Assembly: GCA_038065555.1 (NCBI GenBank)
Contig: JBBTQS010000002.1
Coordinates: 26,399-90,398, forward strand
Direction of reading: 5' to 3'
DNA: 64,000 nucleotides
From: Patescibacteria group bacterium
GTDB taxonomy: Bacteria > Patescibacteriota > Patescibacteriia > Magasanikbacterales > JBBTQS01
The translations under genes and the position numbers were made by a program. Shown in pieces: positions 8,344-51,404 of the stretch (position 1 is the stretch's first letter; each line of letters opens with the position of its first letter). The notes under the pieces are model-generated. The model worked only from the letters and a program-made list of their open reading frames with translations, was not told the DNA's origin and did no database searches.

Positions 8344-8365
8344 AGCAGCCAGTTTACAGAAAAAT

Positions 8366-8401
8366 ACAAAAGGGGTACCGTTCATTCTGTACCCCTTTTG
8401 T
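8366..8401 (+). terminator. Rho-independent terminator after thrS
   Basis: 13-bp perfect stem ACAAAAGGGGTAC/GTACCCCTTTTGT followed by a T-rich tract. Overlaps the miaA start region. Confidence 0.5.
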
Positions 8402-8403
8402 AT

Positions 8404-9333
8404 ATGGAAGCACCTACACTCCCAAAGCTGATAGCCATTGTCGGCCCAACCGCATCGGGAAAAACCAACTTGTCACTTGCTGTTGCCAAAGCCATTGGGG
8501 GTGAAATTATTAATGCGGATTCGCGTCAGTTGTATCGTGGAATGGATATTGGGACAGCGAAGGAGTTGAATGATGGAAGTGTGCCTGGTGCATATGCCGT
8601 GCAAGGAGTTGTCCACCACCTTATTGACATCGCAGATCCGGATCAGGAGATTACGCTTGCGCATTATCAGACGCTTACATTTCGTGCGATTGAAGACATA
8701 ACAGCACGTGGCAAAGTACCAATGCTAGTAGGTGGAACAGGACTCTACGTTCAGGCAATTATTGATAATCTTGATATTCCTCGTGTACCACCCAATGCCG
8801 CACTGCGTCATGAACTCGAGAGCCTGACAACCGAAGCGCTCATGGACATCCTCACTGCTGAAGATCCTGAGGCATCTGAGACTATGGATCCATTCAATCG
8901 TCGCTATATTATTCGTGCGATCGAAATCGTGCGCACAACCGGCGCATCAAATGCGTCACAAAAGAAATGCGGTGAGCCGAAGTGCTGCGTGTTGCTGCTC
9001 GGTGTACAGCGTGATCGGGAAGAACTTGCGGTGCGTATTCATGCACGCATTATGAGCATGCTCGAAGCAGGATTGGTGGACGAGACGAAGCGTCTCATGA
9101 GTAAGTACGGATTTCACCTCTCTGCCATGAGCTCGATTGGGTATTGTGAAATGGAATCATACCTTCGCGGAGAAATTTCGCTCGAAGCGGCGATTGAGCG
9201 CATGGAAGCACGCACTCGCCAGTTCGCACGAAGACAACTCACGTGGTGGCGTCGACCAGGGACGCGGGATGTGGTGTGGGTAGAGTCGGATGCTGAGGCT
9301 ATTGGGTTGGCTGAGAAGTTCTTGCGTGCATAG
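8404..9333 (+). CDS. miaA: tRNA dimethylallyltransferase
   Basis: P-loop GPTASGKT followed by DSRQLYRGMDIGTAK, the canonical MiaA N-terminus. Confidence 0.9.
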   Translation: MEAPTLPKLIAIVGPTASGKTNLSLAVAKAIGGEIINADSRQLYRGMDIGTAKELNDGSVPGAYAVQGVVHHLIDIADPDQEITLAHYQTLTFRAIEDITARGKVPMLVGGTGLYVQAIIDNLDIPRVPPNAALRHELESLTTEALMDILTAEDPEASETMDPFNRRYIIRAIEIVRTTGASNASQKKCGEPKCCVLLLGVQRDREELAVRIHARIMSMLEAGLVDETKRLMSKYGFHLSAMSSIGYCEMESYLRGEISLEAAIERMEARTRQFARRQLTWWRRPGTRDVVWVESDAEAIGLAEKFLRA

Positions 9334-9345
9334 ATTCGCGTAACT

Positions 9346-9514
9346 CCAAAAATAAAGAGTGCTTGGTGCGTCGGGGTACAACGTTCCATTCCCTAACCGG
9401 GAATGGCCGTCTCGTTCTCGGCTGATCGGACAATGTATTACGCCTTGCGGCAAATGCAGCTGGCCGATCAGCCTGCGAAAGCCCCCTCGTGCACCAAGCA
9501 CTCTTTGTTTTTGG
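9346..9514 (+). repeat. Structured repeat element, copy A (candidate ncRNA / 3-prime-end element)
   Basis: Roughly 30-bp terminal stem (with G-U pairs) enclosing the conserved core GGGGUACAACGUUCCAUUCCCUAACCGGGAAUGGCCGUCUCGUUCUCGG ... CCUGCGAAAGCCCCC. Immediately 3-prime of miaA. Confidence 0.6.
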
Positions 9515-9599
9515 CGTCGCGCACATCCACGCACCCCAGAGCTTCTGAGTAAGTCTGACAGTGTTTGTGGTATGACACGTCTGTATGAGTGTGCGCGTG

Positions 9600-9772
9600 G
9601 TTACGGGTAGTGTGGTTCCCTCTGTGAAAGGGGGCCAACGGAGGCCGACCGGCCAGCCAGATCCGCCGTTAGGCGATCCGCGTTGTCCGGTCGACCGAGT
9701 TAGAGACCCAATTTCTCGGTTAGAGAAATTGAGGTTGTACCCCGTCACAGAGGGAACCACAGTACCCGTAAC
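9600..9772 (-). repeat. Structured repeat element, copy C (same family, opposite strand, diverged with compensatory changes)
   Basis: The reverse complement aligns helix-by-helix with copies A and B (GGGG UACAAC ... AAUUUCUC UAACCG AGAAAUU ... CCCCC). Paired positions co-vary (ccattccc/ggaatgg becomes aatttctc/agaaatt). The roughly 33-bp terminal stem is unrelated to those of A and B. Confidence 0.55.
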
Positions 9773-9812
9773 AATGAATACACCTCATAAAGATGTGTTA
9801 TACTAAAAACCT

Positions 9813-10280
9813 ATGGGAAGACCTCTACCATCTCGCCCCGACCCCTCAGCCCTGCGCAACCAAATTCGTTTTGGTAGCTCGATTTCGGATATGGCAGCCA
9901 ATCGCGTGCTCAAGAATGCGAATTTGCCCACGGATCGGCCACTGACACTGCACGAACAAGCAGAGGTTCGACGCAAGGCGGCGCGTATGCAGCGCAATAT
10001 TACGTATGACCGTCGCAAGGAGAACTACGAATCGTACAAAGCAGAAATCGCCGCAGAACAATCTGGCCAAGCCTCACAACAAAAAACGCCCGGTGGTCCG
10101 GTACGTCAGGTGGCTCACGGTGTAGCTGCGCAGGCAGATGCAGCAATGAAAAGTCACGGTGTCAGTGCAAAAAGCGCGGGAACTACAGGACTAGCAGGCG
10201 CACCAGGCGCCATGAAGAAAGCATCGTCACCTGTTCAACCATCAACACCGCCACCGCTACTCAAGGACATCATGTTTTGA
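9813..10280 (+). CDS. Hypothetical low-complexity (Ala/Gln/Lys-rich) protein; coding status uncertain
   Basis: ORF with ATG at 9813 preceded by a TATACT -10-like box; no motif. The 3-prime end overlaps convergent rpe by about 45 nt. Confidence 0.3.
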   Translation: MGRPLPSRPDPSALRNQIRFGSSISDMAANRVLKNANLPTDRPLTLHEQAEVRRKAARMQRNITYDRRKENYESYKAEIAAEQSGQASQQKTPGGPVRQVAHGVAAQADAAMKSHGVSAKSAGTTGLAGAPGAMKKASSPVQPSTPPPLLKDIMF

Positions 10281-12236: not shown

Positions 12237-12417
12237 ACTGGCTTCGCGACGTCGCGCACAACAACACAACGCCAACACACCCTCGGATCAACACGGTCCG
12301 GGGGTGCGTTCTTTTGCAGGTTGACTTTTTTGGTAGATTTGGTCTACTGGTGGCAGCACGAATGGTTCGAGGCTCGTGCACGATCTGTGCGCACAACCAC
12401 CGAAAGGGAGAGTAAGC

Positions 12418-13693: not shown

Positions 13694-13731
13694 ACTCCGG
13701 TTACCAACAAGGTAGCCGGAGTACTGTTTTT
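13694..13731 (+). terminator. Rho-independent terminator closing the island
   Basis: Stem ACTCCGGTTACC/GGTAGCCGGAGT followed by ACTGTTTTT. Confidence 0.5.
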
Positions 13732-18751: not shown

Positions 18752-19648
18752 ATGTCTCGATCCTTCCTCCAATCTTCTCAGTGGCTGCATTTCCTAGCAA
18801 CTGAAGGTCAGCAGATTCATGGTCAGCCACCTGAGTGGCAGTGGGTTGCGCGAAGTCTTGGGGTTTTTGGTACGTTTTGGTACGGCGGGCTGGTGCGCGG
18901 TGGTGGCGAAGATGTCACCCGTACGATACGTGAGGCACGTGCATCGGGGGCGATATTTCTGCGTGTGTCACCAGCTGATACAGAGACGTTCGATGCATTG
19001 GTGCTGTCTGCGCCGCGGATTGTTCGGGTGAGTGACGCACAGCCATCCACATCGTTGGTATTGGATTTGCGACCTGACGAAGCCACGCTCCTGAGCCAGT
19101 TCAAAACCAAAACGCGTTACAACATTGGCGTTGCGCAGCGACATGGTGTGCGTGTGGAAGTAGTACGCGCGCCGCTTGACGCTGAGACATTTGCGAAGGT
19201 GTGGGAGTTGTACGCAGACACAGCAAAGCGACATGGTATTCGTAATCATCCGCGTGCACACTACGAACAAGCGCCAGGTGAGTGGGTGTTGGCATGGCTC
19301 GGGGATGAGTTACTCAACGCGCATTTCTGTGTTGGGTATGATGGTGTGTATACCTATTTGTATGGCGCGTCGTCTGCAGCGCATAAGGATGTGATGGCGT
19401 CGTATCTCACGCAGTGGGTTACTATTCAACATGCGAAAAGTGCGGGGTACACTCACTATGATTTTTGGGGCATTGCGCCTGCAACTGCTGATGCGTCGCA
19501 TCCCTATCATGGGATCACGCGGTTCAAGGTGGGATTTGGTGGCGATGTTGTATCGTATCCAGGCACGTTTGAGATTCCTGTTGCACGCGGGCGTTACGCC
19601 TTGTATCGCGTTGCAAAATTAGTGCGATCATTGCTGCGAGGTAAATAG
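18752..19648 (+). CDS. FemAB-family peptidoglycan bridge aminoacyltransferase (FemX/MurM-like)
   Basis: Acyl-CoA N-acyltransferase-like tandem fold with TKTRYNIG and FKVGFGG motifs typical of the FemABX family. Confidence 0.8.
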   Translation: MSRSFLQSSQWLHFLATEGQQIHGQPPEWQWVARSLGVFGTFWYGGLVRGGGEDVTRTIREARASGAIFLRVSPADTETFDALVLSAPRIVRVSDAQPSTSLVLDLRPDEATLLSQFKTKTRYNIGVAQRHGVRVEVVRAPLDAETFAKVWELYADTAKRHGIRNHPRAHYEQAPGEWVLAWLGDELLNAHFCVGYDGVYTYLYGASSAAHKDVMASYLTQWVTIQHAKSAGYTHYDFWGIAPATADASHPYHGITRFKVGFGGDVVSYPGTFEIPVARGRYALYRVAKLVRSLLRGK

Positions 19649-19654
19649 CAAATC

Positions 19655-19726
19655 GCCTTCGTCGTTCAATGGATAGGACACAGGTTTCCGGTACCTGTGA
19701 TAGAGGTTCGATTCCTCTCGAGGGCA
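19655..19726 (+). tRNA. tRNA-Arg (anticodon CCG)
   Basis: Hand-folded cloverleaf: 7-bp acceptor GCCTTCG/CGAGGGC (one G-U pair), D-stem GTTC/GGAC, anticodon stem CAGGT/ACCTG with loop TTCCGGT, T-arm AGAGG-TTCGATT-CCTCT, discriminator A, no encoded CCA. Confidence 0.85.
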
Positions 19727-19877
19727 CAGCCATTCATTCTTTCTGGGGTACAACGTTCCATTCCCTAACCGGGAATGGCCGTCTCGTTCTCGGTCGGCCG
19801 GACAACGGTCCGTCTTTTTGCGTTTTCTGCTGACCGGCCGTCCTGCGAAAGCCCCCAGAAAGAATGAATGGCTGTGC
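19724..19877 (+). repeat. Structured repeat element, copy B; its terminal stem overlaps the last 3 nt of tRNA-Arg
   Basis: Perfect 25-bp terminal stem GCACAGCCATTCATTCTTTCTGGGG/CCCCCAGAAAGAATGAATGGCTGTGC enclosing a core whose first 49 nt are identical to copy A. The internal helix differs from copy A by compensatory changes (CTGATCGG/CCGATCAG becomes TCGGCCGG/CCGGCCGT). Confidence 0.6.
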
Positions 19878-19955
19878 TCCGTTGCATCGTTGACAAGTGG
19901 CGAGAATTTGAGTAGTGTGCGTGAGATACGCGGTGGATTCAAATAGGAGGGCACC

Positions 19956-20366
19956 ATGTACCAAGGCGATGTCCTGATCGTTGTCGAGGAAGTCACGCAC
20001 GCGCTCGAGTACTCCTGCAATGTATTTTTGGGAGAGTCTGGGTTCGCGTGCATTGTCCGATTTCGTATTTCACTGCTCGAGCTGGAGGGGAAACGGCCTG
20101 CAGGTCCGCAGGAGGTTAGAGATGTGTGCAAGTTCTCAGTGGGTGAGCGTGAGTCTGATACCTTAGATGAAGAGGTCTACTGGTTCTGTTACTCTGTGTT
20201 CATTCCTGTTCTGAATAGGCTCTATGTCATGCGTGAAAGTGCCAGAAAGAAAGGCAAGTTATCCGCTATTCCACACGTGTTAGCGGTAGTGGTTCCTGGG
20301 ACTGTCCCGGATACAACCATCGCCAAACTTCGTGAATGCGGCTTCACCCAAAAGCATGAGGCCTGA
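19956..20366 (+). CDS. Hypothetical protein
   Basis: ORF downstream of repeat copy B; no motif recognised. A terminator-like hairpin (AGGTCGATCG...CGGTCGACCT plus TTTTTT) lies at about 20400-20435. Confidence 0.4.
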   Translation: MYQGDVLIVVEEVTHALEYSCNVFLGESGFACIVRFRISLLELEGKRPAGPQEVRDVCKFSVGERESDTLDEEVYWFCYSVFIPVLNRLYVMRESARKKGKLSAIPHVLAVVVPGTVPDTTIAKLRECGFTQKHEA

Positions 20367-20470
20367 GGCAGAACTCACTTCGATTCATAACCAACGCAGG
20401 TCGATCGTAACAACGGTCGACCTCGTGCATTTTTTGGGCACATGTTACTGTGAATGAAAAGTAAATAACA

Positions 20471-32036: not shown

Positions 32037-32465
32037 GGAGCGGTTGCAGCCATCATACGCCGAATTCTGTCGCATCTGCACGGATGCAGACGGGGCGATC
32101 ATATATCTTGGTCTGACATTGCTGGCAGACTCTTTGCGAACGAACTTTTCGGATGTCGCAACCTTGCGGTCGGACAAACGCTGCTCTTGCACCAGGAAGG
32201 GTTTACCACGTTGTGACCCGAAGGACACAGCGAGTCGCGTAGCTGCTGAGATTTGGATATCCGGAACCTCAGAACCTCACGACACTTTTCACCTTTCACG
32301 CACGCGAACGTGCGCTAGTATTGTCTCTGTGGCACTGTCCCGCGCGACGCATCGCTGCGCCGCGGATGGGTGTTACCCACTTCCACGACATGGCCCGAAG
32401 GCCAAGGGTGTTCGGACGTTCCTCTATGCACGCGAGGTGCACAGCGATCGCCGATGGCGGACCAA
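32037..32465 (-). ncRNA. rnpB: RNase P RNA (bacterial type A)
   Basis: Minus-strand transcript carries the P4 5-prime strand AGAGGAACGUCCG (consensus AGGAAAGUCCGGGC), GUGGGUAACACCC (GGUAACGCC), AGUGCCACAGAGACAAUAC (AGUGCAACAGAGAGCAAAC), GUGAAAGGUGAAAAGUG (GGGUGAAAGGGUG), GUGGUAAACCC...GGUGCAAG (CGGUAAACUCC...GGAGCAAG) and the P4 3-prime strand GACAGAAUUCGGCGUA (ACAGAACCCGGCUUA). A short P1 is formed by GCCAUC/GAUGGC. Ends are approximate (plus or minus 15 nt). Confidence 0.75.
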
Positions 32466-34885: not shown

Positions 34886-34955
34886 AGGTCAGGAGAGTGC
34901 TCCCCCAAGTCGCACTAGCAACCGAAAGCGACTTGGGGGAGCACTCTCCTGACCT
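34886..34955. repeat. Perfect 28-bp hairpin H1 with 14-nt loop ACTAGCAACCGAAA
   Basis: Arms AGGTCAGGAGAGTGCTCCCCCAAGTCGC / GCGACTTGGGGGAGCACTCTCCTGACCT with no mismatch. Confidence 0.6.
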
Positions 34956-35087
34956 CTCTCCATCACAGGGCCAGTGACCGCCCGATGGTCGCGCCTCTGG
35001 TGAACGAAGTCTCCTGGCACACGCCTCGCCTCGACACCGCGTATGCGATGTGTTGTGCATCTGCGCCGTGTGGTGCGCTGTTGCGAG

Positions 35088-35157
35088 AGCTTCAGACACA
35101 TTGTTCCCAACCCGCTTTCGGTTGCTAGTGCGGGTTGGGAACAATGTGTCTGAAGCT
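35088..35157. repeat. Perfect 28-bp hairpin H2; loop TTTCGGTTGCTAGT is the exact reverse complement of the H1 loop, and stems are unrelated except near the loop
   Basis: Arms AGCTTCAGACACATTGTTCCCAACCCGC / GCGGGTTGGGAACAATGTGTCTGAAGCT. Loop-proximal stem bases (CCCAA.yCGC) are shared with H1. Confidence 0.6.
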
Positions 35158-51229: not shown

Positions 51230-51330
51230 GAGGCTCTCCTTGGATTGTATTCGACTACCACAGCGAACCCGTCGGGTACGTGCGAGGTAGACGGGGGATA
51301 CTACGATGTTTGATCGTATTTGTCAATATG

Positions 51331-51404
51331 TGGGCGCGCATGGACTCGAACCATGGACCAGTCGTGTATAAGACGACCGCTCTAACCACCTGAGCTACGC
51401 GCCC
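51331..51404 (-). tRNA. tRNA-Ile (anticodon UAU)
   Basis: GGGCGCG acceptor, GTAGCTCAGGTGGTTAGAGCG D-arm (classic tRNA-Ile), anticodon stem GTCGT/ACGAC with loop CTTATAC, T-arm CATGG-TTCGAGT-CCATG. Confidence 0.8.

Follow-up and report, generated by a model that had tools for sequence, protein, structure and literature searches.

Several families of short palindromic repeats are found between the genes of bacteria. The REP sequences of enterobacteria and pseudomonads, with their BIME and REPIN arrangements, are short non-coding intergenic palindromes located mostly at the 3' ends of genes, and their hairpins in the transcript protect the upstream mRNA. A REP unit is 20-40 nucleotides (nt) long; the whole palindrome is conserved and copied, is tied to a RAYT (TnpA_REP) gene and often occurs as an inverted doublet around a spacer. 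The Correia or NEMIS elements of Neisseria and the ERIC or YPAL elements of enterobacteria and Yersinia are non-autonomous insertions of 100-170 nt, which are co-transcribed with their neighbours and form long RNA hairpins; those of Correia are substrates of RNase III. The stems of Correia/ERIC-type elements are their own conserved terminal inverted repeats, their insertion makes target duplications, and their presence or absence varies among strains. A family of structured elements is described here from a 64,000-nt stretch of a Patescibacteria genome (contig JBBTQS010000002.1, positions 26,399 to 90,398), called the window below. The sequence comparisons suggest, with a confidence a little short of even, that the family is a structured module which has been copied, of the same kind as REP, ERIC and Correia elements, that its stems derive from the flanks, and that it is kept as a putative 3'-end hairpin acting in cis. 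The unit copied is a core of ~112-115 nt, which has been inserted in intergenic DNA behind genes and tRNA genes in a genus-level lineage of groundwater Patescibacteria.

Three copies, A, B and C, were located by a first-pass annotation of the window, and their coordinates are confirmed. The count of three was incomplete: A, B and C stand, but an additional reduced member of the family, behind a tRNA-Leu gene, had been overlooked. The features are as follows.

9346-9514, plus strand: copy A, whole element; minimum free energy (MFE) -93.9 kcal/mol, z-score -10.5, covariance-model score 144.9 bits
9346-9372, 9373-9486 and 9487-9514, plus strand: outer stem (P1) 5' arm, core and P1 3' arm of copy A
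9381-9410, plus strand: hairpin P2 of copy A; lower 3 bp 9381-9383/9408-9410, then 8 bp 9386-9393/9399-9406, loop UAACC
9420-9473, plus strand: hairpin P3 of copy A, with the 10 bp base helix P3a 9420-9429/9464-9473
9311-9345, plus strand: left outer extension of the A inverted repeat; last miaA codons, stop TAG at 9331-9333 and 12 nt
9515-9549, plus strand: right outer extension of the A inverted repeat; diverged inverted copy of the miaA 3' end
9337-9790: inserted block of A, 85-nt spacer and C in inverted orientation
9600-9772, minus strand: copy C, whole element, core ~9630-9743; MFE -109.4 kcal/mol, z-score -12.4, 142.3 bits
19655-19727, plus strand: tRNA-Arg(CCG), directly upstream of B, which starts within the last 3 nt of the tRNA
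19724-19877, plus strand: copy B, core 19745-19856, perfect 25 bp P1; MFE -86.8 kcal/mol, z-score -11.9, 139.2 bits
62422-62485, plus strand: reduced family member directly 3' of tRNA-Leu(GAG); 24 bp stem, A-tract and T-tract

Copies A, B and C have in common a core of 112-115 nt, which consists of a GGGG/CCCC closing helix and the hairpins P2 and P3. The order in the core is the closing helix, UACAAC, P2 with its UAACC loop, the linker GUCUC-NNN-CUCGG, and P3 with the motif GGACAAYG/GCUGR; in copy A this conserved internal motif lies beyond P3a and is followed by a variable tip. Each core is enclosed by a locus-specific outer stem of 25-29 bp. The cores of A and B are 100% identical over their first 49 nt (GGGGTACAAC...CTCGG) and last 15 nt (CCTGCGAAAGCCCCC), and the differences lie in P3 and the outer stem, which differ among all copies. 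Copy C has a P2 of the type CAAUUUCUC/GAGAAAUUG and the 3' tail CCUCCGUUGGCCCCC. Copy B is a mosaic, A-like at both ends and in P3a similar to C and to copy D, found in a relative (see below). This mosaic identity points to copying or conversion between copies. The loop of the tRNA-Leu copy, composed of GGAGUACAAC and GUUGGUCCCC, equals both ends of the C core (GGGGUACAAC...GUUGGCCCCC) with the interior of ~95 nt absent; its orthologue in the relative L015 agrees with it exactly over a 19 bp stem but differs in the loop, which contains a short P2-like hairpin (loop UUACCG).

The description of a conserved multi-helix core with a different outer stem in each copy is upheld by the alignment and the profile search. 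The outer stems had also been called unrelated, and A, B and C indeed share no stem sequence, but the A stem CAAAAATAAAGAGTGCTTGG resembles the stem CAAAAATAAAAGATTCCTGG of the tRNA-Leu copy. Only the GGGG/CCCC closing helix is common to A, B and C, in agreement with the earlier statement that the family is not a miniature inverted-repeat transposable element (MITE) with conserved terminal inverted repeats.

Exact protein matches put the window on a 203-kb contig of the Hainich H41 groundwater metagenome, and the homologues of its IleS, ArgS and RNase J belong to Patescibacteria close to Magasanikbacteria. The window was compared with syntenic loci from five related genomes. The divergence from the window at four-fold degenerate (4-fold) sites is 5.8% for L024, 39% for L025 (the relative from SRR22388082), 55% for L011, L015 and L019, and 61% for L012; these values set the outgroup order L024, L025, L011, L012. 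The genes of L011/L013 (GCA_964627055.1, CAZVGV010000005.1) are syntenic with those of the window and 87-90% identical. The record of this metagenome-assembled genome is titled 'uncultured Gammaproteobacteria', a label which looks wrong because of the synteny and because other IleS homologues (57-63% identity) are named Patescibacteria or Magasanikbacteria.

The stop codon of miaA is separated from the gene that follows, ORF155 (9813-10280, plus strand, 155 amino acids (aa)), by 455-479 nt in the window, L024 and L025, by 25 nt in L011 and by 42 nt in L012. Both flanks of this site can be aligned across the relatives by global alignment, and the extra ~454 nt (window 9337-9790), which consist of A, the 85-nt spacer and the inverted C, are missing in L011 and L012. 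Copy A is present in L024 and L025 and absent in L011 and L012. Orthologues of C are found in L024 and L025, the latter having lost its 3' arm: at L025 6950-6975 (corresponding to about window 9541-9636) there is a deletion of ~100 nt, comprising the A-C spacer, the 3' stem arm of C and the 3' end of the C core. This deletion could be real, or could be an artefact of the Logan assembly at an inverted repeat.

A second site with variable occupancy is the trailer of the tRNA-Arg gene. It is plain, T-rich and empty in L012, carries copy D in L011, and carries B in the window and L024. Copy D is a clean insertion of ~113 nt, of C type, inside a T-run, and has neither the 3' CCCCC segment nor an outer stem. 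It is flanked by TTTTT and TTTTTT, while the empty site has a single T5 run, which makes a target duplication possible; the flanks of A, B and C are inverted repeats, not direct repeats. Presence/absence polymorphism at orthologous sites, one of the features of a classical MITE, is thus found both for A/C and at the tRNA-Arg site. On the evidence of the compared loci the elements are insertions relative to close relatives, and in this they behave as repeat elements, unlike an ancient RNA gene. The insertion of A into a pre-existing terminator palindrome was considered and ruled out, since the empty sites in L011 and L012 have no palindrome. The gene content after tRNA-Arg and B (19956-20366 and downstream) is also variable: a 136-aa ORF, with no Pfam or PHROG match, is present in the window and L024 and not in L011 or L012, which have a 190-aa ORF after the cupin gene.

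The inserted copies have changed slowly. The window and L025 copies of A are 10.7% divergent and those of C 5.2%, as against 39% at 4-fold sites (p <= 7e-17). The P1 arms of A have 1 change in 54 nt and C has 7 changes in 134 nt, where the 4-fold sites of the flanking miaA differ by 40%; the tRNA-Leu stem has 0 changes in 38 nt at a neutral divergence of 55%. Window copy C and L011 copy D differ in 5 of 57 nt. The low divergence of A, C and the tRNA-Leu stem relative to neutral sites indicates that the core and the local stems are constrained. The inserted copies are shown by these alignments to have been retained under constraint, with helices that change by pair-preserving double substitution. 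In a Hainich R2 strain (L003, low coverage) three single-nucleotide polymorphisms were seen in copy C: at 9618, in the outer stem, a C>A with no compensating change, and at 9678-9679, in the P3 tip, CC>AT.

Each copy folds as a single long hairpin capped by the multi-branch core, with energies of -87 to -109 kcal/mol. The fold z-scores of A, B and C are -10.5 to -12.4, and 0 of 200 shuffled sequences were as stable. In the set A, B, C and D, the 21 pairs are 97.6% paired and nine have both sides changed. When nine copies and alleles are taken together, changes on both sides with pairing kept occur in 12 of the 21 P2/P3a pairs: seven of the 11 in P2, where pairing is 99%, and five of the 10 in P3a, where it is 94%. 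A generic covariation test gave 12 of 25 pairs double-changed and 95% of cells paired, although few independent events underlie it; in slid controls the pairing falls to 27-58%.

The first-pass annotation took this covariation as the signature of selection on RNA structure. The compensatory changes are real, but the conclusion that they act at the RNA level does not follow, for the helices are nearly all Watson-Crick and both strands fold about equally well. The MFE of sense and antisense differs by -10.7 to +2.8 kcal/mol, and the G.U counts (28 sense, 16 antisense) give a weak asymmetry. Since the two strands fold about equally, selection at the RNA level and at the DNA level cannot be separated in this way. 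When the window and L024 alleles of A are compared, 12 pairs have changed on both sides; all are Watson-Crick, three one-sided mismatches occur and no new G.U is found. Five of these 12 double changes are transversion swaps, which are impossible via a wobble intermediate. At one position, pair 79:128 of C, the three states U.G, U-A and C-G are found in three genomes. Template switching during replication gives the same pair-preserving pattern at the DNA level, yielding multi-base 'compensatory' changes with no G.U intermediates (PMC8794818).

These data bear on the possibility that the family is an RNA gene or ribozyme, whose core would be freed from the 3' ends of mRNAs and of precursor tRNAs and would act in trans or process itself. 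Release could occur, for example, by RNase III in the outer stem, the stem being then a processing handle with its sequence free to differ; the outer stems of 19-29 bp or more would have sufficient length for this enzyme. Unpaired motifs (UACAAC, UAACCG, GUCUC..CUCGG and GGACAAYG/GCUGR) are kept across copies and species, the covariation is strong, the divergence lies far below neutral, and a G.U intermediate occurs at C 79:128. On the other side, the folding has no strand asymmetry, no Rfam family matches and the element has no evident promoter. Some copies have been gained and others shortened (D and the L025 C) or reduced (tRNA-Leu), with no replacement, and the P3 tips of A and B are completely different between cores identical elsewhere, which would be odd for one trans-acting RNA. 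We therefore consider an RNA gene rather unlikely.

It is important to consider the origin of the outer stem. P1 had been described as variable. In A its outer part repeats the 3' end of miaA in inverted form, so that the stem is at least partly local flank. The inverted repeat is perfect for 24-27 bp and continues with lower complementarity out to ~60 nt, across the miaA stop codon. Its arms of 59 nt are 80% complementary overall, and in the outer extension 24 of 36 positions are complementary (p = 1.7e-7). This extension is common to all three genomes with A (the window, L024 and L025). The left outer arm aligns with miaA of the relatives and is therefore ancestral; the right outer arm, to which nothing in the empty sites of L011 and L012 corresponds, is consequently a later inverted copy. 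In B, the final 3 nt of the tRNA form the start of the perfect 25 bp stem. Another source of the stem arms was sought in the available sequence and none was found. We infer that the long outer stem was at least partly made locally after insertion, which is seen in part for A and may be general.

A known class of mutation could produce such stems. In template-switch (quasi-palindrome) mutations, adjacent sequence is copied as its reverse complement in one event (Monttinen and Loytynoja 2022, PMC8794818). Applied to the present elements, the 3' CCCC of the core would pair with the 5' GGGG on the nascent strand during a replication fold-back, and the polymerase would copy the 5' flank as its reverse complement before returning to the template. 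This idea can be extended to a general route by which these reduced genomes would make long RNA hairpins, each insertion building its own from host sequence, and in which the core is a mobile module with no terminal repeats of its own, the closing helix primes the fold-back on the flank, the host keeps the hairpin as a 3'-end or processing signal, and a second hairpin family at 34886-35157 arose by the same process. In this complete form the proposal is speculative and we regard it as improbable.

Template switching is documented both to create and to repair perfect stems (PMC8794818), and could equally act on DNA of no use to the host. The elements would then be palindromic DNA of a selfish or neutral kind. 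Recombination or template switching would have spread them, arm-to-arm correction would keep the hairpins perfect, and recent homologous recombination, not selection, would account for the low divergence between strains. Such an origin would agree with the presence/absence polymorphism, the deletions in L025 and D, the almost exclusive Watson-Crick pairing with its transversion swaps, the equal stability of sense and antisense, and the mosaic divergence along L024 (from stretches of 0% to a peak of 13% at A), which shows active recombination. However, arm-to-arm correction does not slow substitution, and the counts for A P1 (1/54) and C (7/134) stand against 40% at 4-fold sites. Recombination would need to strike the elements exactly and to spare the adjacent gene, and the tRNA-Leu stem has not changed at all where neutral sites have diverged by 55%. 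We consider a purely selfish or neutral nature unlikely.

The second hairpin family is relevant to a further possibility.

34886-34955 and 35088-35157, in opposite orientations: second hairpin family, 132 nt apart, between RNase J and trpS

It consists of two perfect 28 bp stems of unrelated sequence with an identical 14-nt loop ACTAGCAACCGAAA. The block is absent in a relative, where the intergenic region (L019/L020) is 73 nt, and between the window and strain L022 one stem has six double pair-preserving changes and one single change. Stems that vary around a fixed loop, here as in the loops and junctions of the first family, could mean that the folded core is a DNA-level site. A hairpin or cruciform on single-stranded DNA would be recognised by a protein that copies the core, which would explain the conservation of the loops; this protein might be a nuclease of the HUH/Y1 type, a recombinase or a nucleoid protein whose gene lies in another part of the genome. 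The strand-symmetric fold stability would suit such a site, as would the arrangement of A/C and of the second-family hairpins as inverted pairs around a spacer, like REPIN doublets. The window and the fetched loci offer no enzyme of this type and no conserved target site or duplication, with the exception of the possible one in the T-run around D. This explanation seems to us quite unlikely.

Copies A, B, D and the tRNA-Leu copy each follow a gene or tRNA directly on its 3' side and in sense. Every copy had been said to lie immediately 3' of a transcription unit in sense; this is correct for A and B but not for C, since ORF155, which is kept in every relative and overlaps the end of rpe, intervenes between rpe and C. 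Most probably the element works in cis, forming a very stable hairpin at the 3' end of the upstream transcript; a U-tract after the stem could make it a terminator, and elsewhere it could stop exonucleases or be a substrate of RNase III. The layout of a bidirectional intrinsic terminator, A-tract, stem and T-tract, is found in A (ending in CTCTTTGTTTTTGG) and in the tRNA-Leu copy (ending in CTTTTATTTTTG). The earlier suggestion of a terminator therefore has a basis in these two, but it does not extend to B and C, and generic intrinsic termination is unsupported. The same resemblance would favour ordinary terminator hairpins with loops alike by chance or convergence and no copying. This explanation is effectively refuted by the 49 and 15 nt at which A and B are 100% identical, by the covariance-model scores of 111-145 bits among the copies, and by the empty sites in relatives. 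One public annotation of this contig (L001) lists a gene over A and C, a 153-aa ORF (9299-9760, minus strand); since this ORF lies entirely on palindromic elements, it is almost certainly spurious.

Several observations weigh against the proposal of a flank-stemmed module retained as a cis-acting 3'-end hairpin. Copy C faces away from the nearest upstream gene on its own strand and ends 41 nt upstream of the ORF155 ATG. A GC-rich stem followed by a U-tract is present in A and the tRNA-Leu copy and lacking in B and C, so intrinsic termination is not general. With sense and antisense folding equally well apart from the weak G.U difference, a role at the RNA level stays putative. The inner 27 bp of the A stem have no counterpart in the empty sites and resemble the tRNA-Leu stem, and part of the stem may therefore travel with the core. 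The A allele of L024 is 18.9% diverged, against a genome background of 5.8%; it was probably imported by recombination, and this outlier complicates arguments from rates. No mobilising enzyme (transposase, integrase, reverse transcriptase (RT) or HUH) was found in the 64-kb window or the fetched loci, and only four independent loci are known.

The absence of a match to any known RNA family, stated earlier, is confirmed: the elements give no hit in Rfam 15 at the gathering thresholds or at E<=10. In the whole window only RNase P and four tRNAs match at the gathering thresholds, and at E<=10 the regions 9300-9820 and 19640-19960 give only chance matches of 11-17 bits. Hammerhead, twister, pistol, hatchet, HDV-like, Y RNA, raiA and HEARO are among the Rfam 15 families that gave no covariance-model match at or near their gathering scores. 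Searches with nhmmer, blastn and the covariance model over ~280 kb (the window and the loci of the relatives) found no additional full copies. In genome, viral and metagenome collections a strict core pattern gave 0 matches, and a relaxed pattern gave a single match, copy D of the relative. Both patterns are too strict even for allelic variants (L024 A has GTACAAT/ATCTC/CTCGA and L025 A has TAGCCG). The family is seen in one Patescibacteria genus only, and for this reason the distribution is a lower bound. Phage and plasmid collections searched with the elements by BLAST gave only a chance 21-mer, and a literature search on repeats of the candidate phyla radiation (CPR) or comparable elements gave nothing directly relevant.

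Other hairpins and RNAs were observed in the window. A 15 bp hairpin between thrS and miaA (8364-8403, ATACAAAAGGGGTAC...GTACCCCTTTTGTAT) has GGGGTAC in common with the 5' end of the element. It was considered as a mini copy (AAAAGGGGTAC...GTACCCCTTTT) and not counted, because the orthologous thrS-miaA hairpin is kept in all relatives including L011 and L012; it is probably the terminator or attenuator of thrS. Terminator-like hairpins at 12278-12306, 13694-13722 and 20398-20423 have stems of 11-12 bp and AACA(A/C) loops, which recall the ACAAC motifs (UACAAC, GGACAACG). The class A RNase P RNA (32045-32458, minus strand) scores 131.5 bits (gathering threshold 100), with several deletions and insertions relative to the model. 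A tRNA-Ile at 51330-51404 on the minus strand has the anticodon TAT (UAU). Such a tRNA-Ile is uncommon in bacteria, where AUA is usually read by a modified CAU tRNA.

The Patescibacteria, or CPR, have tiny genomes with few recognised mobile elements or regulatory RNAs, and a copied structured module of 115 nt is a new candidate for either. Its unusual feature is the flank-derived stem. If this is true, a short nucleating structure and template switching may produce, in a single step, hairpins that are long, perfect and specific to their locus. It would also follow that classical 'compensatory covariation' can arise with no selection at the RNA level, which is a caveat for the discovery of RNA motifs. 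If the 3' ends of mRNAs and tRNA precursors are set by these elements, they would provide a handle on RNA processing in bacteria that cannot yet be cultured alone.

The comparison with known elements may now be made in detail. Like REP/REPIN doublets, A and C form an inverted pair around a spacer. However, the unit is a three-helix core of 112-115 nt, not a palindrome of 20-40 nt; the long stem is peculiar to each locus and owes at least a part of its sequence to the flank; and no RAYT (TnpA_REP, Y1 HUH) gene was found among the ORFs of the window or the fetched loci (~80 kb of genome). Unlike Correia/NEMIS and ERIC/YPAL elements, the terminal stems differ at every locus and there is no consistent target duplication. 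The attC sites of integrons are folded single-strand recombination sites of conserved structure and variable sequence, with the conserved sites outermost. The ends GTACAAC...GTTGGYC are loosely like their core sites RYYYAAC...GTTRRRY, but the layout is opposite (conserved motifs inside variable stems), each core site has one mismatch to the consensus, the copies are dispersed, and the loci have no integrase and no cassette array; attC was therefore rejected. A retron msr-msd was ruled out because no neighbouring gene has an RT domain, and IS200/IS605 ends, a group II intron and a TIGR array were ruled out by layout and the absent partner gene. The work on template switching (PMC8794818) describes a mutation mechanism and not a family of elements; here that mechanism is invoked, from sequence comparison, for the outer stems around a conserved, copied core. 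The family lacks the features that define REP, ERIC and Correia elements: its terminal repeats are not conserved, its repeat unit is not a short REP, and no partner gene was seen at the loci covered. By our analysis it is new to Rfam, and in kind it resembles REP/BIME, ERIC and Correia elements.

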